Assembly (NCBI GenBank): GCA_964357605.1
Contig: CAYHLX010000001.1
Span: forward strand, 5,159 to 69,158
Origin: an uncultured Candidatus Saccharibacteria bacterium
GTDB taxonomy: Bacteria > Patescibacteriota > Minisyncoccia > Phycocordibacterales > PALSA-1337
Length of the DNA: 64,000 bases
Reading direction: 5' to 3'
Shown: positions 2,408-54,427 of the stretch, one piece after another
Layout: each line of letters starts with the position of its first letter
Position numbering within the stretch: the first letter of the stretch is position 1
Program-made: the position numbers and the translations under genes
Notes under the pieces: model-generated
The model's input: the letters and a program-made list of their open reading frames with translations, nothing else
Told to the model about the DNA's origin: nothing
The model's database searches: none

Positions 2408-5400
2408 ATGAGAAAAATATTTTCTACAAAATATAATGTAAATTTTTTCAGTACATTTTTTGTGATTTTGGCTGTACTATTCTCAAGTACAAACCTAGCC
2501 CATGCTTCCAAGATAGGTGTCCCCCCCAACTTTATTCCAGGTAATGGACTATCGAATGGCCTCGTCGGCTACTGGACGTTTGATGGCAAGGATACCACCA
2601 TTCCTGGTCCAGTTGTAACATACATAACCTCCGGTTCTACATGGGCAGTTCCTTCAGACTGGAATAGTAGCAATAATACAATTGAAGTGATTGCTGGCGG
2701 TGGTGGAGGCAATGGTTCTAACACCGCAGGTGGAGGTAATGGTGGAACAGCAGGTTCAGGAGGAGCCTATGCAAAGGTGGTTAATTTGTCATTGACTCCA
2801 AGCTCATCGGTTAATATAGGAGTTGGTACAGGTGGTGCTGGAGGTGCTCGTGATACTAAAGGAGGTGTCGGAGGAGACACATGGTTTAATGCTACATCAC
2901 TTGCCAATGCAGTAACCAACGGTTCGTCTGTGAGCGTTGCCGCAGCGGGAGCCGCACAATCAGCCCTTTTATATAGTACAGCAGGTACGGCTGGTCAAGC
3001 ATCTGCTTCCGTAGGAACAACAAAATATAGTGGAGGTACTGGTGGGGCGGCTAACATTTTCCAGGCCTTTGGTGGCGGAGGAGGAGGTGGAGCTGGACCT
3101 AATGGAGATGGAGGTGCTGGTGGTACTGCTACTGGTTCTCAAGGTGCTGGAGGTGGAGGTTCAGGTGGTGGCGCTGCTGGTAGTAGTGGTTCAGGAAACA
3201 ATGGAGGTAACGGAGGTGCGAACTATACAGCATCACAAGCAGGAGGAACAGGTGGTGCTAATGATGGTGCTCCTGGTACTGGAGATAGCAACGGTGCTTC
3301 TGGTGCCGCTGGAGGAGGTTATGGTGTCTTCGGATCACAAACAGCCAATGGAGGCGCTGGTGGTTCTGGACAGGAATGGGATAGTACACATGGCTCAGGA
3401 GGTGGAGGAGGAGGAGCTGGTAGAGGTAATGCTGGAAACGCTGATGGTGGTAACGCAGGCTCGTATGGCGCAGGTGGTGGTGGTGGTTCTGACTCTGCGT
3501 CTGATGGTGTTGGAGGTAATGGTTCTCAAGGTCTCATCGTTGTCACGTATACTCCAGCCACAGCAGCCACCGTAGATAAATCTGGCAATGGCAACACCGG
3601 CACGCCCACCAACATGTCTCAAGCCACGAGTACAGCGGCAGGCAAAATCGGCCAAGCTCTCAATTTCGATGGTGCTGATGATTATGTGAATGCCGGAGCA
3701 AGCTCTGCTCTTAATGGGGCGACGCTGGTCACCGTGAGTGCCTGGGTGAATTTTAGTGATTTGCTTGAACATGGTTCTGGTTCTGGTGTGCCAGCTTATC
3801 AAAATATTTTTCAACGTGGTTCATCAGGCGAAATCAATGGATACATCTTAAATTTTGGATTGTATTCAGATGCTAAGATCATTGTAGATGTTCAGGACAC
3901 TACCACTCTTTCACATGTGCAAGCATTTAGCGCATCCACAGTTGCGGCCAATAAGTGGTACCATGTTGCTTTTGTGGCAGCAGCAAGCACGCTTACTGTA
4001 TACGTAGATGGAGTGGCAGGAACACCAGTGAGTTACAATGGTATGGAACCTTTGGTAACAGGAGGAACACTTTTTTATAATAGGGTAAATTTGGGAGCGG
4101 CTATGTATAGCAGTGACACAGCCAGTATTTACCTAAAAGGAAAACTCGACGACGTCCGCGTCTATACTCGCGCACTTTCCACCACAGAAATCGGACAGTT
4201 GTACAATCTAGGTGCGGCAAAATTTGGTATCTCGCCAACAAAATCTATAACCTCCGGCCTCGTCGGATACTGGACTCTGGATGGTAAGGACGTACCAAAC
4301 GGCAGAGCAAATGATGTAACAGGAAATGGACATCACGCTAACTTGGTGAACATTGCCACTTCCACTTTCTATACTTCAGGCAATACTGGACAAGGGTTTA
4401 ATTTGGACGGGGTAGATGATTATGTGAATACGAACAAAGCATTGTCGACTTTTACAGACGGTAGTAATGGTACATATGCGGCTTGGGCATATCCCACTGC
4501 CGCTGGCGGAGGCGCCTGTTCTAATTTAAATGCGGCTCCAATTATTACAGATGGTACTGGTAGCGGTGGCTATACAACTCTCGGTATAACTGGAGGTAAT
4601 TGGTGTGGAGGTTGGTGGGGTACTGGAGTTGGCGGTTTAACGAGTGCCGCTACACTGAATAAATGGTCACATGTTGTCTTAACTGTGAACGCTGGGGTTG
4701 AGACTCTCTACGTGAATGGTGTGCAAGTCGGTTCACAGTCAGTAGGAGCTACCACAGCTCTAACTAGCCCCGTGTATTTCGGGCGGTCATTTGGTGATAT
4801 ATATTTCCCAGGGAAGATTGACGACGTTCGCATCTACAATCGCGCGCTTTCTGCAACAGAAATTGCTCAACTCTACAAACTCGGTATCTCCGCCAAACAA
4901 TCCGCTTCTCCTACAGTTACTAGCACTTCTTGCGCAGCGGGGCTTTCCTGTGGCCTCATCGGCTACTGGACGTTTGATGGAAAGGATACTCCATGGACGA
5001 GCTCTACAGCGGCCACGACTTTGGATAAAAGTGGCAATGGCAACACCGGCACACTCACCAATATGGCTCAAGTCACGAGTCCGATAGCGGGCAAAATCGG
5101 GCAAGGACTTAGTTTTGATGGGAGTAATGACTATGTGAGTGCACCAGTGAATCTTTCGGGGACAAATATAGCCTCTCTTTCTTTTTGGATGAAGTGGAAT
5201 GCATATGCTAATGATGATGATCTGGCATTTGAGTATACTACCAACTTTACTGGCGTGAATGCATTTATTATAGATCCAAATGACAGCACACCATCAAGGT
5301 TTTCTATTATCATGTCAGCTACGGGAGGATATTATAATGGCGGGTATATAACACGACCATCCGCAGGAGTTTGGCATCATTATGGAGTTATATTAAACAG

Positions 5401-8133: not shown

Positions 8134-8757
8134 ATGAATTATATAGATTTTCAACAAAAGTTTAAGGAGTACCCGCTTATTATGGTTTCCGATATCAAGA
8201 CAGCATTTGCTGATTATGATTCTCGGCGATTGTATGAGTGGCAGAAGGCCGGCTATATCCGCAAGGTGGCTAGGAATTTTTGGTTATTTACAGATCAGCA
8301 GGTGAGTGAAAGTCAGACGTGTTTTATTGCCAACAAGCTTCGTGAGCCATCCTATCTAAGTTTGGAATATGCTCTTGGTACATATGGACTCATTCCAGAA
8401 CAGGTTTTCGTCAAGACATGTATAACAACGAGGGGTCGTGCGACATATGAGACACCTGTCGGGAACTTTAGCTATCGTTCCATGAAAGAGGAACTTTTTT
8501 TCGGCTATCTGCTCCATGGAGAGGGGGCATATGCATATAGGATGGCTTCACCAGAAAAGGCATTGCTGGATTTTCTTTACATGCGTTCAGATATACAGGA
8601 TGAAGGCCACATCGCCGAGCTACGCATTGCCACGGATGTGTATCGTGACAAGATAGATGATGCTCGACTGGATTCATATCTCAAAATATTCAACTCGCCG
8701 ACACTAGAGAATAAGGTGCGTCTTGTTCGTGAATATATACTAGACAACCATGATTAA
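8134..8757 (+). CDS. Putative AbiEi-like antitoxin (type IV toxin-antitoxin system partner of AbiEii)
   Basis: 207-aa protein immediately upstream of, and overlapping by 8 nt, an AbiEii-family nucleotidyltransferase gene. The call rests mainly on this conserved two-gene arrangement plus size. No strong motif was recognised by eye. Confidence 0.5.
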   Translation: MNYIDFQQKFKEYPLIMVSDIKTAFADYDSRRLYEWQKAGYIRKVARNFWLFTDQQVSESQTCFIANKLREPSYLSLEYALGTYGLIPEQVFVKTCITTRGRATYETPVGNFSYRSMKEELFFGYLLHGEGAYAYRMASPEKALLDFLYMRSDIQDEGHIAELRIATDVYRDKIDDARLDSYLKIFNSPTLENKVRLVREYILDNHD

Positions 8758-9524
8758 TCTTACCGAATTACAAAAGCTCTATCCGTACCCGGCAGGGTTT
8801 GACCGTAGTGCACTACGAGAATATTTTCAATACAAGATTATGGATATTCTTTTTAGACAAGGAATTGGAAACAAGCTTTGTTTTCTAGGGGGTACAGCAA
8901 TAAAGTTCTGCTATGGTGGCAGACGGTATTCAGAGGATCTTGATTTTGACAATCGTGGTATTAGTCCTGAAGAATTTGAGGCTTTGGTGGAAACCGTTGG
9001 ACAGGAACTTGGTCGTGAAGGATATCGCGTCGATGTTAGGAATTCTTTCAAGAATGCATTTCGTTCACGAGTGGGCATCGAGGGTGTATATCATGATAAT
9101 GGTTTGAGCCCACTTCCCAATGAAAAGCTAATGATCCAGATCGATATGGCACCGCAGGATTTTGCTTTTGAGCCACAGACATATATGCTACAAAAGTACG
9201 AGGTACTCCGTACGATTGCCGTAGTTCCAGTCCAGACTATTTTATCCCAAAAGGTTGCCGCAGTTATTTATTGGACGCAAGAGAGCTAAGGGTCGTGATT
9301 TCTACGACATCGTCTATCTCCGTGGCTTTACGGAATTTGATTTCTCCTATCTCAAGGATAAGCTTGGTATTGTCGATGTAGTCGAACTCAAAAAAAAACT
9401 TCTCGAAGTCACTGCTGGATTTGATTTTGATGCATTGGCTACCGATGTTATGCCATTTCTCGTTAATCGCGAGGAGGTTGAATATGTGCGCCAGTTTAGA
9501 ACATATATTGAACAGAAATTGTGA
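8750..9524 (+). pseudogene. AbiEii/AbiGii-family nucleotidyltransferase toxin, interrupted by a +1 frameshift around 9255-9290
   Basis: The N-terminal ORF 8750..9289 contains 'LCFLGGTAIKFCYGGRRYSEDLDFD', the AbiEii nucleotidyltransferase signature GGTAL...R.S.DLDF. The conserved C-terminal part 'GRKRAKGRDFYDIVYL...' continues in the +1 frame (ORF 9255..9524, which starts at TTG). The two ORFs overlap by 35 nt. Confidence 0.6.
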
Positions 9525-17837: not shown

Positions 17838-20420
17838 ATGAATCTCACCAAAAAACATCTCATAGTAGCGGGGCTTACTATTATTATCATCCTTACCATC
17901 CTCTTTAATCTTGGAGATATTACATCCAAGGAGATTGCACAGTATATCCCACCAAGTAGCTCACAATCCCAGACTGCCGCCGTTTCTGACTTCATCGTCC
18001 ACAATACATTTGATACAGGGACTGTGACCGGTGCTATCGGCCAGGCCACAACATTTGATGGGATTGATGATTATGTGACACTGAGTTCGAGTGGTGTGCC
18101 AGTGGGCAAACAGCCGGTGACTGTGTCGGCTTGGGTCAAGCTTGCTGGTTCTCCTTCTGCTGATAGCAGGATTGTTTTTCGCGGAGAGAGGTATTCGTCA
18201 TCAGATTTTATATTTTTTGATCTAGCTCTCGAAGGGGCAGGACACAATGTGCCGACATTTACCATGATGGGTACCGGAGGAGGAGGTTCACACTACAAGG
18301 CAACTTCAGGAACAGGACTTTCAGCCGGACAGTGGTACCACCTGGTTGGCGTTTCCGATGGAGGAGGCGCAGTGACTGTATATGTAAACAATACTCCTAC
18401 TACCGGAAGCCATATTGATTTCGATGGTCACGATGGAACACCATACGCACCGTCCGTAGGCGCACGGTTGCAAGGCTCCGCGGATTCTTTCTTTGCCGGT
18501 TCGATCGACGACGTTCGTATTTACAACCGCGCACTTGACTCGAGTGAAGTGAGCCAACTCTACGCGCTCGGCAGTGGAGGTGGTACGCCCGCGCCAACGC
18601 CGGATCCTACACCAACCCCGACACCGGATCCAACACCGACACCTTCTGCAGTCAACGGTCAATGTGGTGTAACTGAGAATATTTGTATTCAAGGTACTCT
18701 CAATAATACTGCTGACTCTACTACCAATTATCTTTGGCAATGTACCGGTGCAAATGGTGGCGCAACGGGTTCATGTTCTATTGCAAAACCAGTAAACACC
18801 ATAGTGACCCCACCATCCACTCCAGATCCAGTTACCTTTACAGCACCACCTGTAGTATCCGGTTCGCAAACATACTATATAGACTATGTCTCAGGTAACA
18901 ATGCCAACAACGGCACTTCAAAAAACACCCCATGGAAGGTTCATCCATACATGAAAGGTTTTACCGGAAGCTATTCACACAAGGCTGGAGACAGATTTAT
19001 TTTCAAGGGAGGTGTAACGTGGCCACACTCTGCATTTCAGATGAATATTGCCGCTGGCGGAAGCAGTGACAGTGCGCGTGACTATTATGGTGCTGACAAA
19101 ACTTGGTATGCCGGTTCATCTTGGACCAGACCAGTTTTTGATTTTGAAAACAAAGTCGTAGCACCGGATGCATGGGGTGGAGCAGAGTCAGCAGGGTTGC
19201 TTCTCAGGGATGTTCACTACATCACTCTCGACAATCTGGAGCTGATCCGTTTCCGTCAAAGATTGTTTGAAAAGAATTCCGGCAAGGCTGACCCCGGATT
19301 TGCGGTGGATAATATCACTATACAAGGATCCGCATCCAATATTACACTGCAAAACAGCATTGTGCGTGATTGGACTATACCTACACCCATACCGGCGGGC
19401 TATATAGATGGCGGGGCATCAGGAGGGGTTATCGTTAATGCTTGGTCTGGCGGAGGCACGGGTATAAAAATCCTTAACAATGAATTTCATCAGCAGAATA
19501 CAGGAATCAGATCTGGGGTAGCACTCTATTTGGGTGGAGAGATTGCCTATAACACTATCCACCATGTGTCAGATGCTATCGTCGGTGGTGGTAACGTTCA
19601 TGACAATCTGATCTACAACGTCGAGGATGCCACCTGTCCGGAATTACACGAAGATGTGATCTATATCACATCACCTTCAACGGTTTACAACAACGTTGTC
19701 TATGAAGCTACTGCCGCCGCTCCCGTCTATTACCTTGAACCGAGTCGTTCCGCATCCACTGGAACAACATTGGTGTATAACAATATTTCCTATAATACCG
19801 GGTATGCACCTCTCAGTATAGACATTAGTCAGCCTGAAGGTGTCAATCACGTGATAAAAGTTTACAACAACAGTTTTCATTCCGAAAGTTCTTCGGTGGT
19901 ACGCGTGGTGGATCGTGTCGGTTTACCATTGGGTGTATTGGATATGAAGAATAATCACTTTATTTTCAATGGACAATTCCTCAATATTCCTGCTGGCACA
20001 GTCCTAGACTTTAAGAATACAAATAATATTTTCCACACAGAGTCCGAAGCTGCCCAGTTCGGGGCAACAAGGGCCAACCTATTCAAATTTACTTCGTCTA
20101 ATGCACCAATGATAAACGCCGGTGTAAGTTTGTCGACATTTTTTGCGACTGACAGGCTCGGTGTTGCTCGTCCACAAGGCGGAGCTTGGGATATTGGCGC
20201 CTACGAATATGGTGGAAGCGGAGGATCTGTATGGTCACCACCGCCACCAGCACCAGTTTACAAGCAAGGTGATTTCAACAGGGATGGGCTAGTCAATTCT
20301 CTAGATCTTTCTCTGCTCACATCTGTTTGGAATCAAAATAGTGCCTCATACGATCTGAATTCTGATGGTATCGTAAATAGCTTGGATTATGTGGTTATGA
20401 TTCAGAACTGGACATCGTAA
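17838..20420 (+). CDS. Secreted LamG-like - PT linker - Cys module - beta-helix - dockerin protein (divergent paralog)
   Basis: Same N-terminal leader ('IIILTILFNLGDITSKEIAQYIPPSSSQSQTAAVSDF'). 'IDDVRIYNRALDSSEVSQLYALGSGGGTPAPTPDPTPTPTPDPTPTPS' is near-identical to 12121..16401. The beta-helix core is homologous to 9600..11990 ('SGSQTYYIDYVSGNNANNGTSK.TPWKVHP(F/Y)MKGFTGSYSHKAGDRFIFKGGVTWP'). The dockerin is a variant: 'DFNRDGLVNSLDLSLL...DLNSDGIVNSLDYVVMIQNWTS'. Confidence 0.7.
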   Translation: MNLTKKHLIVAGLTIIIILTILFNLGDITSKEIAQYIPPSSSQSQTAAVSDFIVHNTFDTGTVTGAIGQATTFDGIDDYVTLSSSGVPVGKQPVTVSAWVKLAGSPSADSRIVFRGERYSSSDFIFFDLALEGAGHNVPTFTMMGTGGGGSHYKATSGTGLSAGQWYHLVGVSDGGGAVTVYVNNTPTTGSHIDFDGHDGTPYAPSVGARLQGSADSFFAGSIDDVRIYNRALDSSEVSQLYALGSGGGTPAPTPDPTPTPTPDPTPTPSAVNGQCGVTENICIQGTLNNTADSTTNYLWQCTGANGGATGSCSIAKPVNTIVTPPSTPDPVTFTAPPVVSGSQTYYIDYVSGNNANNGTSKNTPWKVHPYMKGFTGSYSHKAGDRFIFKGGVTWPHSAFQMNIAAGGSSDSARDYYGADKTWYAGSSWTRPVFDFENKVVAPDAWGGAESAGLLLRDVHYITLDNLELIRFRQRLFEKNSGKADPGFAVDNITIQGSASNITLQNSIVRDWTIPTPIPAGYIDGGASGGVIVNAWSGGGTGIKILNNEFHQQNTGIRSGVALYLGGEIAYNTIHHVSDAIVGGGNVHDNLIYNVEDATCPELHEDVIYITSPSTVYNNVVYEATAAAPVYYLEPSRSASTGTTLVYNNISYNTGYAPLSIDISQPEGVNHVIKVYNNSFHSESSSVVRVVDRVGLPLGVLDMKNNHFIFNGQFLNIPAGTVLDFKNTNNIFHTESEAAQFGATRANLFKFTSSNAPMINAGVSLSTFFATDRLGVARPQGGAWDIGAYEYGGSGGSVWSPPPPAPVYKQGDFNRDGLVNSLDLSLLTSVWNQNSASYDLNSDGIVNSLDYVVMIQNWTS

Positions 20421-46940: not shown

Positions 46941-47510
46941 TTGTATGTTTTGCTATTGCTAAAATTAATTATAGTAATCTATACTGTACCTAACATGGAT
47001 GAAACAGAACCACTATATTTTACAAAATTCAGAGAACATATTGATCACAAACTTGAAACACATGTTCCGAAGTATTTTAAAGATTTTCAAATGCACATTG
47101 ATCAAAAGTTTGAAACACACGTTCCAAAGTACTTTAGGGATTTCCAAATGCACATTGATCAAAGGTTTGAAACATATATACCGAAATACTTCAGAGATTT
47201 TCAAGTACATATCGATAAGAAGATTGAATCAGAGATTAATAGTCTTGCTGTAATGATAAAGGACAACTTTGCTACTAAGGACGATCTAGAAGAAATGAAA
47301 AAAGATATGGTAACTAAAGAAGACATAAAAGATATGGTTACTACATACGATATAAAAGATATGGCAACAAAGGAAGATGTCAGAGAGGCTGTGGCTCCAA
47401 TCTTGAAACACATCGGATCTTATGAAATGCGGGCAAAAAATATAGAAGATATTTTACTTAAAGATCATAAACCCAGGATTGTTGATCTAGAAAAGAAGGT
47501 TTTTGCTTGA
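46941..47510 (+). CDS. Hypothetical protein built from in-frame tandem repeats (20-aa and 9-aa units)
   Basis: 'HIDHKLETHVPKYFKDFQM / HIDQKFETHVPKYFRDFQM / HIDQRFETYIPKYFRDFQV / HIDKKIESE', then 'TKEDIKDMV / TTYDIKDMA / TKEDVREAV'. The start could instead be ATG 46996 (MDETEPLYF). Confidence 0.45.
   Translation: MYVLLLLKLIIVIYTVPNMDETEPLYFTKFREHIDHKLETHVPKYFKDFQMHIDQKFETHVPKYFRDFQMHIDQRFETYIPKYFRDFQVHIDKKIESEINSLAVMIKDNFATKDDLEEMKKDMVTKEDIKDMVTTYDIKDMATKEDVREAVAPILKHIGSYEMRAKNIEDILLKDHKPRIVDLEKKVFA
47035..47240 (+). repeat. About 3.5 tandem copies of a 60-nt coding repeat
   Basis: Read directly: ...cacattgatcaaaagtttgaaacacacgttccaaagtactttagggatttccaaatg... repeated with few substitutions. 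It is inside the CDS and in frame. Confidence 0.7.
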
Positions 47511-47514
47511 GGTA

Positions 47515-50751
<3,237 letters not shown>

Positions 50752-50802
50752 AGGGAAAGTATAGCAAAAAATGGCTCAAGAATGTGGTCAAAATTTTGCT
50801 TG

Positions 50803-50838
50803 ACTTTTGGTTATATTATGTTGTATAATTGAAGTGGT
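50803..50838 (+). promoter_or_regulatory. Candidate sigma70-type promoter of the DGR target gene (TTGACT - 18 nt - TATAAT), followed by about a 140-nt leader
   Basis: ttgacttttggttatattatgttgtataattg, read directly. The long untranslated leader before the GTG 50975 / ATG 50984 start has no recognised motif. Confidence 0.4.
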
Positions 50839-50974
50839 TTTAAAGAGCACTTTTACAAGAGAAGAGACGATCCGCTACAGCGTTGAGAGGCTTAAAACAG
50901 ATAAAACTAGGCAATTCAAAGCTGTGGCGGACCATGTCGGTACGTCATACGGCACATAACAAACACGATGAAAG

Positions 50975-51736
50975 GTGATAACGATGAACACATCGATTAC
51001 ATCGAACCAGACAGAACAAGTAGCAACCTTCACTGCAGATGCCGCCCGCTCCGGCGCCCGAAACGTCATGGAACGAGTCGCGAAGATTGAAGGTGTCTCC
51101 CGAGACAGCCTTCAGGCAAGAGTCATCGAAAAAGGCAACGAGCTGACCAAGTTCGTAAGTCGGGAAGTTGAAGCTCTTCTGGAGAGCAAGCTTCTCGCAA
51201 TGCTGATGATCATGCTCGACCACCTCAAGGTGATCATGGTAGGATCAGTGAAAATTGCGACTATGCCCCGCATGAAAGTTGTTGATTGCCTCAAGCAAGA
51301 CGGCGTGATCATCGGCTGGCGTGATGACGATCTGGATGGCTGGCTCTCGGAATATGTTTCAGCGATGCCTACAGGGACAATCAACTGCATGGAACTTACG
51401 AAGCCCGAAGGCACAACTTTCCGCCAGATGGCTGAAGCGGCCCTAGGCATGGCCGGGGCTAACGACGCAGAGCTGAAAAAAGCTCTTCGTGAACGTGGAA
51501 TGACCTTCCACCTTGAACAAGTTCGGGATCTCATCACGAGAACCGAAGCTAAAGAGGAGACAGGCTTCCATAAGGACGGCAAAGCCAACCTCCTTTTTAT
51601 CGAGGATGAGAATGGGGAAGTCTTTGGGCTCCGCGTCCGTCGGGATGACTGCTGGGGGGTGCGCGTCGACTCCTTTGGCAACGACCGCGAGTGGCTTCAG
51701 GGCCGTCGTTTCTTCTCTCGCAACATGCCTGCGTAA
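50975..51736 (+). CDS. DGR target (variable) protein; C-terminal about 36 aa encoded by the VR
   Basis: The VR occupies the last about 106 nt before the stop. The VR-encoded tail 'VFGLRVRRDDCWGVRVDSFGNDREWLQGRRFFSRN' corresponds to the TR-encoded 'IFGLNVNRNDYWKVNVNSFDNDNEWNQGNRFFSRN' (AAC/Asn-rich, as is usual for DGR templates). GC content is visibly higher than in flanking genes. No signal peptide is evident. An alternative start at ATG 50984 has a GGTG Shine-Dalgarno. Confidence 0.75.
   Translation: MITMNTSITSNQTEQVATFTADAARSGARNVMERVAKIEGVSRDSLQARVIEKGNELTKFVSREVEALLESKLLAMLMIMLDHLKVIMVGSVKIATMPRMKVVDCLKQDGVIIGWRDDDLDGWLSEYVSAMPTGTINCMELTKPEGTTFRQMAEAALGMAGANDAELKKALRERGMTFHLEQVRDLITRTEAKEETGFHKDGKANLLFIEDENGEVFGLRVRRDDCWGVRVDSFGNDREWLQGRRFFSRNMPA
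51619..51724 (+). repeat. DGR variable region (VR)
   Basis: Manual alignment to 52014..52119 gives 85/106 identical. Every one of the 21 differences is VR G/C/T opposite a TR A (g/a, cg/aa, cg/aa, g/a, g/a, g/a, gg/aa, cg/aa, g/a, g/a, cg/aa, ct/aa, cg/aa, c/a). Confidence 0.85.
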
Positions 51737-51742
51737 GCAGGC
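51727..51742 (+). promoter_or_regulatory. GC-rich hairpin immediately 3' of VR (gcctgc GTAA gcaggc), with the TAA stop codon inside the tetraloop
   Basis: Read directly. A 6-bp perfect stem with a 4-nt loop in this position matches the hairpin/cruciform element known to flank VR in DGRs and to promote target recognition. Confidence 0.5.
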
Positions 51743-51779
51743 AAGGTTTAGATCCTTGGGTCTTTGGACACTTGGATTC

Positions 51780-51812
51780 AAAGGGGCGTTCGCAAGAATG
51801 CCCCTTTCTGCT
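51780..51812 (+). terminator. Rho-independent terminator of the target gene
   Basis: aaggggcgttcgcaagaatgcccctttctgc: stem aggggc/gcccct followed by a T-rich tract. Confidence 0.5.
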
Positions 51813-52013
51813 ATACTCAAAAAGGCTTTGTTGACATTTCCGTTCACTAAATAGTGGATTGAGGTGACAAAGTCTTTTTCAATCGTTTTATTTTGTTGAA
51901 AAATAAAAAAAGAAAAAAGTTGGTACATGAAACTGGTGAGTGATAGGACTCAAAATAATATACAATCTGGAGACAACCTCAACAGACAGTGACATGGAAG
52001 GTTTTGTGTACAT

Positions 52014-52119
52014 AATCTTTGGGCTCAACGTCAATCGGAATGACTACTGGAAGGTGAACGTCAACTCCTTTGACAACGACAACGAGTGGAATCAGGGCAA
52101 TCGTTTCTTCTCTCGAAAC
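52014..52119 (+). repeat. DGR template region (TR)
   Basis: Adenine-rich cognate of the VR (see the VR feature). It lies in non-coding context between the target gene and the avd/RT genes. Confidence 0.85.
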
Positions 52120-52128
52120 TGTTTCTTT

Positions 52129-52148
52129 CTCCCGCATCAGAGCGGGAG
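52129..52148 (+). promoter_or_regulatory. Hairpin 10 nt downstream of TR (ctcccgc atcaga gcgggag) followed by ttttctttc
   Basis: Perfect 7-bp stem, read directly. It is a plus-strand terminator-like or structured 'spacer' element of the TR RNA, and it overlaps the 3' end of the antisense avd ORF. Confidence 0.4.
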
Positions 52149-52436
52149 TTTTCTTTCTAGAGGAAGGTTTTGTAGTTCCTTATGCCATCCACCGATCATT
52201 TTTCCTGGTTCAATTAAAGTCTTTGAAAGAGCTATGTATCTTTTGTCATCAAGTACTTTTATTTCCCAAGCTACATTTAGGAAAATTTTTAAACAATCTA
52301 GTTTGGTTACTGCTTTCTTTAAATGCGGCATTTTTTCCGTTCTGGGGCTCAAGGCACTCAGACTCAGATTTTCTATAAGTTCTATGAAAAGTGAGTCTAT
52401 TTTTCCGGCAATGGTGTGTCTTTTGGATTTTGGCAT
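52137..52436 (-). CDS. avd: Avd-like accessory variability determinant (four-helix-bundle protein); true start probably upstream at 52524 but out of frame because of a G10 tract
   Basis: The C-terminal 'KLDCLKIFLNVAWEIKVLDDKRYIALSKTLIEPGKMIGGWHKEL' matches the conserved ...L...lgyl.eeey..l...ieeigkmLngli of Avd / 23S-IVS four-helix-bundle proteins. 'MPKSKRHTIAGKIDSLFIELIENL' aligns to the FPKEEKYgLtsQlRRAavSIpaNIAEG helix. The in-frame upstream sequence 'AHSLPVLLKLISSYKLWQQYFDS' supplies helix 1 but has no start codon. An ATG-ATG (52524/52521) sits in the -1 frame just across a G10 run. Confidence 0.6.
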   Translation of the reverse strand: MPKSKRHTIAGKIDSLFIELIENLSLSALSPRTEKMPHLKKAVTKLDCLKIFLNVAWEIKVLDDKRYIALSKTLIEPGKMIGGWHKELQNLPLERKLPL

Positions 52437-52505
52437 GCTATCAAAATACTGTTGCCAAAGTTTATAACTTGAGATTAACTTTAATAAAACTGGTAAGCTG
52501 TGTGC

Positions 52506-52515
52506 GGGGGGGGGG
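52506..52515. repeat. G10 (C10 on the avd strand) homopolymer in the 31-nt divergent intergenic/5' region between avd and the RT
   Basis: Read directly: tgtgc gggggggggg tgaca. This is an exceptional run in a roughly 40% GC genome. With 9 G the avd ORF would start MMSPPPAHSLPV... and be 128 aa. Confidence 0.9.
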
Positions 52516-52555
52516 TGACATCATAGGTTTTAGGTTATCATAATAAGGTTTATAT

Positions 52556-53548
52556 ATGAAGACATATGTTGATATTATTTCTACAAACAATTTACTCAAA
52601 GTTTGGAAAGAATTTTTACGTGGAAAGAAAAAACGTAAGGATGTGAATGTATTTTCACTGCATCTTATGGACAATATCTTTAGGCTTCATAAAGATATGA
52701 AAAATAAAGAATATAAACATGATGAATATGAAGCATTTGGTATTTCTGATCCAAAGCCTCGCAAGATTCACAAGGCTACAGTCAGAGATCGCCTAGTTCA
52801 CCATGTCTTGTATGAAGCCTTATCCCCACAGTTCAATCAAAGATTTATTTCTGATTCATATTCTTGTCGTCTCAATAAAGGGATGCACCGCGCCCTCGCA
52901 AGATTTAAAATATATTCAGGAAAGGTGAGTAAAAACAATACCAAAACATGCTGGATTTTGAAATGTGATATTAGAAAATTCTTTGCTTCTATTGATCAAT
53001 CTATTCTCACATCCATTCTTGAAAAATATATTTCTGATAAAGACATTCTTTGGCTGCTGTCTAATGTCATACATAGTTTCCATAGTACTGCTCCAGGAAA
53101 AGGACTACCTCTGGGTAATCTGACCTCACAATTGTTGGTCAATATTTACATGAACGAATTTGATCAATTTGTAAAACATAAACTCAAAATAAAATGCTAT
53201 ATTCGTTATGCCGATGATTTTGTTGTTTTTGATTCTTGCAAAAGTAATTTGGAAAATCTTATAATTATTTTCAGGGAATTTCTAAAAGAAAATCTAAAGC
53301 TTGACCTGCATCCCAATAAAGTTTTCATAAAAACTCTAGCATCAGGTGTTGATTTTCTCGGCTGGGTTCATTTTCCTAACCACCGAGTGTTGCGTACAGT
53401 TACAAAAAAGAGAATGATGAAGAAAATAAAATCAGGTTTTCGGCCAGAAGTCATAGCTTCGTATATTGGTATGCTTGAACATGGAGATGCTTATACCTTG
53501 CGAAAGAATATAGAAAATCTTCCAGAAATCGAGATAAAGCCGAAATAA
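52556..53548 (+). CDS. DGR-type reverse transcriptase
   Basis: 'GLPLGNLTSQLLVNIYMNEFD' is the DGR-specific motif 4 (I/LGxxxSQ). 'IRYADDFVVF' is YxDD motif 5. 'ISDPKPRKIHKATVRDRLVHHVLYEAL' covers motifs 1-2. The compact 330-aa size and the absence of maturase/endonuclease or intron RNA features fit a DGR RT. Confidence 0.85.
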   Translation: MKTYVDIISTNNLLKVWKEFLRGKKKRKDVNVFSLHLMDNIFRLHKDMKNKEYKHDEYEAFGISDPKPRKIHKATVRDRLVHHVLYEALSPQFNQRFISDSYSCRLNKGMHRALARFKIYSGKVSKNNTKTCWILKCDIRKFFASIDQSILTSILEKYISDKDILWLLSNVIHSFHSTAPGKGLPLGNLTSQLLVNIYMNEFDQFVKHKLKIKCYIRYADDFVVFDSCKSNLENLIIIFREFLKENLKLDLHPNKVFIKTLASGVDFLGWVHFPNHRVLRTVTKKRMMKKIKSGFRPEVIASYIGMLEHGDAYTLRKNIENLPEIEIKPK

Positions 53549-53602: not shown

Positions 53603-54427
53603 ATGGGAAATGAAAGTATCAAACTAGCACTCTTTCAGAAGAAGGGGATAAGAAGGACAATTCATGAGAATGAGTGGTATTTTGTTATTGCGGATGTTAT
53701 TGAGGTTCTTACAGATTCCATCAATCCAAAACAATACTTAAAAAATCTTCTGAACAGAGATGAGGAACTTGTAAAAGGGTGGGTTCAAATTGAACACCCC
53801 CTTTCAATAGATACTGCAGGAGGGCCACAGAAAATGCTTTGTGCTAACACCGAAGGTATTTTTCGCATAGTCCAATCAATTCCTTCTCCCAAAGCAGAAC
53901 CATTTAAAAGATGGTTGGCAAAAGTAGGTTATGAAAGAATACAGGAAATAGAAAATCCAGAGCTAGCTACTAAACGAACGAGAATATTATATAAATTGAA
54001 AGGATATCCTGATGATTGGATTGAAAAAAGAATGCGAGGTATTGCTATCAGAGAAGAATTAACTGATGAATGGAAAAATAGAGGGGCGAGGGAGAAAAAA
54101 GATTATGAAATACTGACGACAGAAATTTCAAAAGCGACTTTTGGTGTTACTCCAGAAGAATATAAAAAGTTAAAGGGTTTAGAAAGAGAAAATCTAAGGG
54201 ATCATATGAATGATTTTGAACTTATCTTTACTATGCTTGGAGAACGTTCAACGACCGAAATTCACAGAACCGAAAATTCAAAAGGAGTATCAAAACTAAA
54301 ATCAGATGCAAAAGTTGGTGGTGAAATAGCGGGAGACGCTAGAAAGAGACTTGAAAAGAGGCTCAAGAAATCTCTGGTCTCAGAAAAGAATTTCAAAGAT
54401 CTTAATGAAAAAAGACTTAAAAAATAA
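53603..54427 (+). CDS. DinD-like DNA-damage-inducible protein (Bro-N domain + DinD C-terminal region)
   Basis: N-terminal 'IRRTIHENEWYFVIADVIEVL...NPKQYLKNL' follows the Bro-N pattern (..ir....ge.wFva.Dva..L). The central/C-terminal 'EELTDEWKNRGA...FGVTPEEYKKLKGLERENLRDHMNDFELIFTMLGERSTTEI' resembles E. coli DinD. It overlaps the rnhB start by 23 nt. Confidence 0.6.
   Translation: MGNESIKLALFQKKGIRRTIHENEWYFVIADVIEVLTDSINPKQYLKNLLNRDEELVKGWVQIEHPLSIDTAGGPQKMLCANTEGIFRIVQSIPSPKAEPFKRWLAKVGYERIQEIENPELATKRTRILYKLKGYPDDWIEKRMRGIAIREELTDEWKNRGAREKKDYEILTTEISKATFGVTPEEYKKLKGLERENLRDHMNDFELIFTMLGERSTTEIHRTENSKGVSKLKSDAKVGGEIAGDARKRLEKRLKKSLVSEKNFKDLNEKRLKK

Follow-up and report, generated by a model that had tools for sequence, protein, structure and literature searches.

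The gene at positions 50984–51736 of the 64,000-nucleotide stretch analysed here (hereafter the window), which comes from a contig of an uncultured Candidatus Saccharibacteria bacterium, is the variable-protein gene, or target, of a diversity-generating retroelement (DGR) of the type carried by the candidate phyla radiation (CPR); it is a typical member of its class. It shows an excess of GC at the third codon position (GC3) that is independent of host composition, confined to the coding sequence (CDS) and characteristic of the variable-protein genes of this class of DGR. A first-pass annotation, made from the sequence alone, had taken the GC-richness of the gene as a mark of horizontal acquisition. 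We instead consider it probable, with some reservation, that the segment is a CPR DGR variable-protein transcription unit whose GC-richness stems from selection on synonymous sites and not from an un-ameliorated foreign origin.

The GC excess is confined to the target coding sequence

The target CDS (50975/50984–51736, forward strand) has a GC content of 0.537 and a GC3 of 0.606, compared with means of 0.41 (standard deviation 0.044) and 0.36 (standard deviation 0.066), respectively, over the 53 long open reading frames (ORFs) of the window. Its GC3 ranks first among these 53, the runner-up reaching 0.477, and its total GC is matched by just 0.5% of 753-nt segments. One other stretch is as GC-rich, 2814–3803, which lies inside a Laminin_G_3 gene and owes its richness to codon positions 1 and 2, its GC3 being 0.33. 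In a fine profile the rise in GC coincides with the target CDS (about 51000–51750) and reaches its maximum, 0.72, in the variable repeat (VR), while the leader (0.40–0.50) and the spacer 3′ of the target are of ordinary composition. The ORF statistics and the GC profile thus bear out the earlier impression that the target is more GC-rich than its neighbours. The same holds for the remark that the genes for the reverse transcriptase (RT; GC 0.33) and Avd (GC 0.37) are AT-rich like the host, since both fall slightly under the window mean of 0.41. The island had, however, been given a start at 50870, and this position is not where the GC content rises; it marks a hairpin in the leader.

The excess recurs in cassettes from hosts of widely differing composition

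We compared the target, avd, RT and flanking host ORFs of related loci (designated by L-numbers, with WIN for the window). At the window locus the GC3 of host, target and RT is 0.37, 0.61 and 0.28, respectively. Across the 16 cassettes host GC3 ranges from 0.26 to 0.74 and target GC3 from 0.54 to 0.83, and the RT tracks the host. Target GC3 exceeds host GC3 in 15 of the 16 cassettes, by +0.21 on average (Wilcoxon p = 6e-5). The slope on host GC3 is 0.32 for the target and 0.77 for the RT (r = 0.87), which sits slightly under its host (-0.06), and target GC3 lies above RT GC3 by +0.09 or more throughout. L031 and L130, where the targets come from a different protein family, show the excess too. 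Every third of the target CDS is enriched, the lineage-specific N-terminal third included, whereas the 150-nt flanks show no GC excess.

Target, avd and RT fall into matching similarity groups, and the cassette has therefore been inherited as a unit. Synonymous sites are saturated between subfamilies, and target GC3 is still high. In the sister cassettes L007 (host GC3 0.40) and L019 (host GC3 0.64) the number of synonymous substitutions per synonymous site (dS) of the target is 1.2, and the synonymous differences between GC and AT are symmetric in the target (19 versus 19) but run at 34 versus 61 in the RT. In four of five unsaturated pairs dS is smaller for the target than for the RT (0.49 versus 0.85 for the window and L023), which lends modest support to synonymous constraint.

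The third positions of the window target contain less A (0.23 versus 0.29) and less T (0.19 versus 0.34) than those of the host; across cassettes the G-over-A shift is +0.17 and the C-over-T shift +0.19. In L007, L018 and L008 third-position A drops to 0.08 in the target, against 0.22–0.29 in the host. Genes for ribosomal proteins and translation factors stay near host GC3. An RT-profile scan of viral contigs gave only five loci, two of which could serve as phage controls; these two DGRs, L027 and L028, have the classical architecture, and their targets show no excess, with GC3 values of 0.33 and 0.36 against a background of 0.33–0.40. The absolute folding energy per nucleotide of the window target CDS is much higher than that of the RT gene.

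Architecture of the retroelement

The identification of the segment as a DGR target gene, already made in the first-pass annotation, is secured by a template repeat (TR)/VR pair, a bAvd gene, an RT gene and a conserved gene order. The TR (52016–52119) and the VR (51621–51724, residues about 213–247 of 250), both on the forward strand, form a 104-nt pair with 19 differences, every one at a TR adenine, and 0 mismatches at non-A positions. The VR occupies the C terminus of the target, and the TR adenines fall in AAC or AAT codons of the target frame, giving variable sites at in-frame AAY codons (Y being C or T). TR/VR homology extends over 100–125 nt in all cassettes. A comparison of the window with L023 shows VR differences at about 10 variable codons; three assemblies of one population differ at only one.

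On the reverse strand, avd (52137–52524) matches PF22296 and phrog_3206. It is followed on the forward strand by the RT gene (52556–53548; 330 aa, GC 0.33; PF00078, 5e-23; phrog_1423, 6e-102), whose translation shows the LGNLTSQ and YADD motifs. Relatives of the RT number at least 8000, and those with names belong to Parcubacteria-type CPR lineages. The order target(+)-TR-avd(-)-RT(+) is common to every homologous locus compared. The inserted block closes on its right with a Bro-N domain gene (53603–54427, forward strand; PF02498, phrog_15286), which is AT-rich like the RT gene (GC3 0.25) and has a full-length match (E = 4.5e-107) to PDC-S13, a candidate defence family in PADLOC. The window, from an ultra-small groundwater bacterium, agrees at 100% identity with contigs from Hainich groundwater, obtained from the 0.1-µm filter fraction.

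A GC-rich inverted repeat comes after the 3′ end of the VR, which is invariant; this is the arrangement expected of an initiation of mutagenic homing (IMH) element, and we regard that 3′ end as a putative IMH. Directly 3′ of the VR/IMH, the hairpin UGCCUGC-GUAA-GCAGGCA (51726–51743, forward strand; -17.2 kcal/mol for 51720–51765) corresponds to an 18-nt palindromic insertion, ATGCCTGCG[T/C]AAGCAGGC, that is specific to the lineage of the window (51725–51742) and L023, where it splits the family-typical ...SRN and KV-stop codons (compare L005 2826–2840). In the window the insertion creates a new stop codon in the hairpin loop. In L023 the loop is GCAA and this stop is lost, so that the frame reads on to the ancestral, family-typical KV stop and the protein has 256 aa versus 250.

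The sequence around the TR (51893–52158) is highly conserved in the window, L023 and L005 despite saturated synonymous sites. Upstream of the TR, a conserved, A-rich non-coding block (AAAAAAGAAAAAAGTTGGTACATGAAACT..., 51893–52015, forward strand), compared among the same three loci, contains a promoter-like GTGACA-16-CATAAT (51989–52016) that ends at the TR start. Directly after the TR, the hairpin CUCCCGC-AUCAGA-GCGGGAG with its U-run (52129–52158, forward strand; z -3.5) is kept in L023 and L005, and probably marks the 3′ end or a spacer structure of the TR RNA. These sequence features suggest a discrete small TR RNA that would be antisense to the 3′ end of avd.

A conserved hairpin in the target leader

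The TTGACT/TATAAT promoter noted in the first-pass annotation is present, as a near-consensus sigma-70 promoter (TTGACT-18-TATAAT, 50800–50829, forward strand; 11 of 12 matches), but sits upstream of the interval then assigned to the gene. It predicts a transcription start at about 50836–50838, and promoters resembling TTGACA / TGTATAAT occupy the equivalent position 5′ of target homologues. The target starts at the ATG at 50984, after the Shine-Dalgarno-like ribosome-binding site AAAGGTGA (50971–50978, forward strand; read from the sequence), which a CA-rich linker precedes. The resulting leader of ~147 nt agrees with the about 140 nt proposed earlier. The target also has, as had been claimed, its own terminator (51783–51809, forward strand), in which a hairpin (51783–51804; GGGGCGUUC-GCAA-GAAUGCCCC) is followed by the U-run UUUCU; this structure folds with -20.1 kcal/mol (z -6.3), and compensatory changes are seen in L023 and L005. 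Because consensus promoters and strong ribosome-binding sites are kept upstream of target-family genes, strong expression of these genes is suggested.

The possibility that the leader is regulatory had likewise been raised, and folding of its RNA agrees with this. The 147-nt leader is more stable than shuffled sequences (z -3.98), mainly through a hairpin of about 23 bp (50867–50936, forward strand) with the outer stem CCGCUACAGC/GCUGUGGCGG and the inner stem GGCUU/AGGC, the fold of which (50871–50931) reaches -28.9 kcal/mol (z -6.4). The hairpin is also found 5′ of the target in L023, L010, L012, L018, L008, L021, L007 and L019, and in L005 with a completely different outer-stem sequence. In an alignment of 10 sequences, 16 of the 23 hairpin pairs show double compensatory changes, and 87% of the hairpin cells are paired, compared with 72% in shuffles and 35–44% in slid controls; none of the 500 shuffles reaches the observed values. 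A covariance model also finds the hairpin upstream of two further target families (L031, L130, L024), and it thus precedes targets from three protein families. The sense strand outscores the antisense strand by 10–38 bits, as conserved G-U pairs predict, and the matches lie ~55–110 nt upstream of DGR target starts, with the exception of L007, where the start is unclear. The model has no other match in the 224 kb of loci plus the window, and none in 682 kb of decoy viral loci containing outer-stem words. The leader is likely functional, and the covariation argues for a cis-acting RNA element, which may stabilise the mRNA, bind a protein or serve as an RNase III site.

The hairpin is missing from L002/L014 (3′ half only), L004, L015, L022, L029, L030 and L129, and in L127 an analogous hairpin is discernible by eye with a covariance score below the threshold. 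A search of Rfam 15 over 50400–52700 with E values up to 10 gave no match beyond chance level. A pattern built on the outer stem had 95 matching stretches in viral sequences; 80 of these loci were scored with the covariance model, none matched, and we take them as chance occurrences. A second copy of the hairpin lies at L005 33–94 (minus strand), at the contig end on the other side of recJ. Its score and GC equal those of the L010 hairpin, which precedes a second target homologue (P0004), and the L005/L010 genome probably has two targets for one DGR.

Predicted fold and localisation of the variable protein

The target CDS encodes 250 aa. An AlphaFold (AF2) model based on a 105-sequence alignment has a predicted local distance difference test (pLDDT) score of 89 overall and >95 for residues 80–250; a 10-sequence alignment gave a pLDDT of only 52 and an unusable model, in place of which the former was used. 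Three N-terminal helices (residues 7–77) are followed by an alpha/beta domain, with the VR on its last strands. The conserved C-terminal domain of ~170 aa (residues 80–250) begins near residue 80, and the N-terminal region that had been called unannotatable is therefore shorter than the ~215 aa proposed. A word-indexed search recovered just 10–13 relatives of the target, whereas an exhaustive search with a profile hidden Markov model recovered 629 clusters at E <= 1e-3 (176 of them at E <= 1e-10), mostly proteins of 200–250 aa aligned over their C-terminal ~165 residues. The target had no match in Pfam, PHROGs or PADLOC, none of 105 family members matched Pfam, a sequence profile search of the PDB returned no match, and Foldseek found no significant match for the model in the PDB or BFVD. 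A homologue at L016 / L006 10001–10498, in a Minisyncoccia metagenome-assembled genome, has neither an RT gene nor avd nor a TR/VR pair within 10 kb and may be an orphan or a remote target.

A heuristic scan of the target found no signal peptide, lipobox or twin-arginine motif, in agreement with the first-pass annotation. The first 35 residues are hydrophilic, and the sole hydrophobic stretch (residues 71–89) includes D, H and K. The further view that the lack of a signal peptide is unusual did not hold, being true only of the few characterised DGRs; it is the reported norm for CPR targets (PMC8144416). Targets of CPR DGR clade 2 are typically without a recognisable transmembrane (TM) or other conserved domain, and Roux et al. 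(2021, PMC8144416) leave open whether they are genuinely non-membrane proteins. A missing signal peptide in CPR DGR targets is thus already known. From these features we infer that the protein is probably a soluble cytoplasmic binder, or one exported by a non-classical route.

Origin of the compositional excess

Selection on the synonymous sites of this class of target gene is, in our view, the favoured of the explanations that remain, and we propose the following model. RT and Avd would copy the TR RNA (52016–52119) into cDNA with errors opposite adenines, and this cDNA would overwrite the last ~35 target codons (VR 51621–51724), re-randomising about a dozen AAY-templated codons that sit on a putative, divergent C-type-lectin-like C-terminal domain. 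The near-consensus promoter would drive a target transcript that carries the 147-nt leader with its 23-bp hairpin and is ended by its own terminator. Selection would then act on the synonymous sites of the target mRNA or gene, perhaps for a stable, strongly expressed transcript, while the neighbouring avd and RT genes would drift with the host genome. Several observations weigh against this model. The comparison comprises just 16 cassettes, which are not phylogenetically independent, and host GC3 was taken from flanking ORFs only, of which L005, L012 and L015 supplied one or two. The reduction of target dS is modest and is reversed in one pair, and the folding of the target CDS does not surpass that of composition-matched shuffles (z -1.3). 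As to the cytoplasmic binder, some distant family members have N-terminal TM-like helices, so localisation may vary within the family.

A recent transfer of the target or the whole cassette from a donor of ~53% GC, its composition not yet ameliorated, would account for a gene that is atypical for its host (GC3 0.61 versus 0.36, standard deviation 0.066), whose third positions resemble those of host genes in the ~50% GC relatives L002 and L004, and whose cassette sits at different insertion sites in different genomes; atypical GC was also taken as evidence of DGR transfer by Wu et al. (2018, PMC5758913). The excess, however, appears in 15 of 16 cassettes whatever the host GC3 between 0.26 and 0.74, and avd and RT, which have co-diverged with the target, track the host or lie lower in GC. 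A foreign composition should moreover have decayed at saturated dS, as that of the RT did, and target GC3 has remained high with no drift towards the host; recent transfer is therefore disfavoured, and we regard it as quite unlikely. Translational selection on a very highly expressed gene with optimal C-ending codons is unlikely as well, if somewhat less so. It fits the strong Shine-Dalgarno sequences and the consensus promoters that are kept upstream of family members, as well as the preference of the window target for NNC over NNT (0.67 versus 0.30), beside which G over A is hardly shifted (0.41 versus 0.36). Across cassettes, however, G gains over A as much as C does over T, which is not the usual signature of optimal codons, and the genes for EF-Ts, RF, L32, L19, L25, L31, S2, S6 and EF-P stay within about 0.1 of host GC3 while the targets exceed it by +0.2 to +0.37.

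A GC-biased process acting on the DNA of this gene, such as retrohoming-linked repair or gene conversion, or a hot spot of recombination, for which a DGR target would be a plausible site, ranks between these two in our estimation and is likewise improbable. Within the gene GC content is highest in the VR, and in the window 17 of 18 scored A substitutions go to G or C, yet once A-to-N changes are pooled their bias towards GC is not strong (C 49, G 111, T 71). TR/VR homology covers just 100–125 nt, whereas the excess is even over the whole 750-nt CDS and ends with it, and avd and RT, less than 1 kb away, are biased in the opposite direction. Occasional copying of the whole target mRNA by the RT, with a consequent loss of adenines, could be read from the third-position A of 0.08 in the L007, L018 and L008 targets (host 0.22–0.29). 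Thymine is depleted too, third-position T falling from 0.34 to 0.19 in the window, which contradicts an adenine-only depletion at this locus, and the AT skew over the target gene is positive; we give this idea very little credence. Even less can be given to an overlapping antisense gene that constrains the third positions of the target. Antisense ORFs of 189 and 161 aa do overlap it, but their open runs are no longer than those of synonymous-codon shuffles and no frame is consistent across the 15 targets compared, and on this comparison we rejected the hypothesis. Horizontal transfer should not be inferred from the GC island of the target, and composition-based transfer tests on DGRs can mislead if target and RT are pooled.

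Insertion sites of the cassette

The suggestion that the whole cassette is an insertion is supported by its different housekeeping neighbours in different, partly syntenic CPR genomes. It lies between dnaE and rnhB in the window, between nusG and rplK in L002 and between ileS and recO in L029; in L129, the backbone of which is otherwise syntenic with L029, it lies between genes for a tRNA synthetase and a peptidase M16, and in L005 it adjoins recJ. At L031 / L128 5350–9943 (Vogelbacteria-type) the cassette splits N- and C-terminal transketolase half-genes that are adjacent in L030, and the downstream half-gene overlaps the RT stop with its start. Given these different flanking core genes in partly syntenic genomes, the cassette has probably been mobile as a unit over evolutionary time. 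In the window an imperfect 16-nt direct repeat (14 of 16 identical; 50767–50782 and 54354–54369) brackets the block from the target promoter through the end of the Bro-N gene and could be an insertion scar or a chance occurrence.

A homopolymer tract near the start of avd

At the 5′ end of avd, directly upstream of the RT promoter's -35 element, the window carries a G10 homopolymer (52506–52515; C10 in the sense of avd). A tract of G8–G11 is present at this position in nearly all CPR cassettes, namely the window, L004, L005, L007, L008, L015, L018, L019, L022, L023, L024, L030, L031, L129 and L130, with a (GT)n repeat in its place in L029; it is absent from the phage DGR controls. The tract encodes PPP in front of the conserved Avd motif LPVLL..SYKLW, and the open frame with the N-terminal motif PPPAHSLPVLLK... 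extends to the poly-C tract. In the window the only ATGs upstream of the tract in avd lie at 52524–52519 (minus strand), in another frame. The same is true more widely: 11 of 15 cassettes, the window included, have no in-frame start upstream of the tract and an out-of-frame ATG 6–38 nt upstream. With the observed C10 only an N-terminally truncated avd ORF of 99 aa is open, in keeping with a Pfam match that begins at profile position 21, whereas a hypothetical C9 would give a 128-aa Avd starting MMSPPPAHSLPVLLK. Since the body of avd is out of frame with the ATG, full-length Avd needs a frameshift in the tract, and this configuration suggests phase variation or programmed slippage. No polymorphism in tract length was found among WIN, L009 and L023, all of which are G10. 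In the literature that could be searched, no paper was found that links DGR, Avd and homopolymer tracts. Elsewhere in its contig L018 carries a G18 homopolymer (18101–18118), so that genome may be richer in long G-tracts more generally.

Comparison with known systems and implications

CPR DGRs were reportedly first surveyed by Paul et al. in 2017. The closest affinity of the window cassette is to CPR DGR clade 2 of Roux et al. (2021), with which it shares an RT in a very large CPR clade, a small target without a recognisable TM segment, signal or conserved domain (PMC8144416) and a groundwater source, and nothing in the cassette contradicts membership.

Among characterised DGRs, the variable proteins TvpA of Treponema denticola and Mtd of a Bordetella phage have a C-type lectin fold. 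Like TvpA (PDB 2Y3C) and Mtd, the window target has its VR at the extreme C terminus with AAY-templated codons, but it shares no sequence similarity with them and no Foldseek match. TvpA is moreover a lipoprotein and Mtd a tail-fibre protein, whereas the window target has neither an export signal nor a phage context; it differs from the phage targets L027 and L028 also in its GC3 excess. Vallota-Eastman et al. (2020, PMC7517822) and a PNAS paper of 2024 (PMC10907252) describe DGR targets without secretion signals in cyanobacteria and multicellular bacteria. Such targets are alike in lacking a secretion signal, and argue that DGRs can diversify cytoplasmic binders; as described there, however, they are large multidomain signalling or conflict proteins, whereas the window target has 250 aa in two parts and no recognisable effector domain. 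The tract in avd is reminiscent of the poly-G contingency loci of Neisseria and Campylobacter and of programmed frameshift sites, in that it parts the start of avd from its body in 11 of 15 cassettes. Unlike contingency loci, the tract is constant at G10 in WIN, L009 and L023, and switching is here a candidate only.

Neither the host-independent GC3 excess, nor the leader hairpin, nor the poly-G tract in avd is described in Rfam or the literature searched; as far as checked, the GC3 signature, the covarying leader hairpin and the avd gene interrupted by a slippery tract are new. The CPR hold a large share of known DGRs, yet what role is played by such small variable proteins without a signal is left open in the literature (PMC8144416). 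The synonymous-site signature and the leader hairpin could serve to find and classify such genes and point to control at the RNA level, and the poly-G tract suggests that DGR activity may be switchable in these organisms. It is conceivable, though we think it rather doubtful, that the three features belong to one control layer of CPR DGRs, consisting of a GC-rich target independent of the host, a structured leader common to unrelated target families and an Avd gated by slippery poly-C. Were this so, mutagenesis would be switched on stochastically, and the target transcript would be a specially protected RNA or one that takes part mechanistically in retrohoming.

Elsewhere in the window, a very AT-rich ORF at 46941–47510 (GC 0.31) consists of tandem repeats of ~19 aa (HIDQKFETHVPKYFKDFQM...) and has no family match. 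The ORF at 8750–9289 carries an AbiEii-type nucleotidyltransferase toxin domain (PF08843), which suggests that this ORF and the one before it form a type IV toxin-antitoxin pair.

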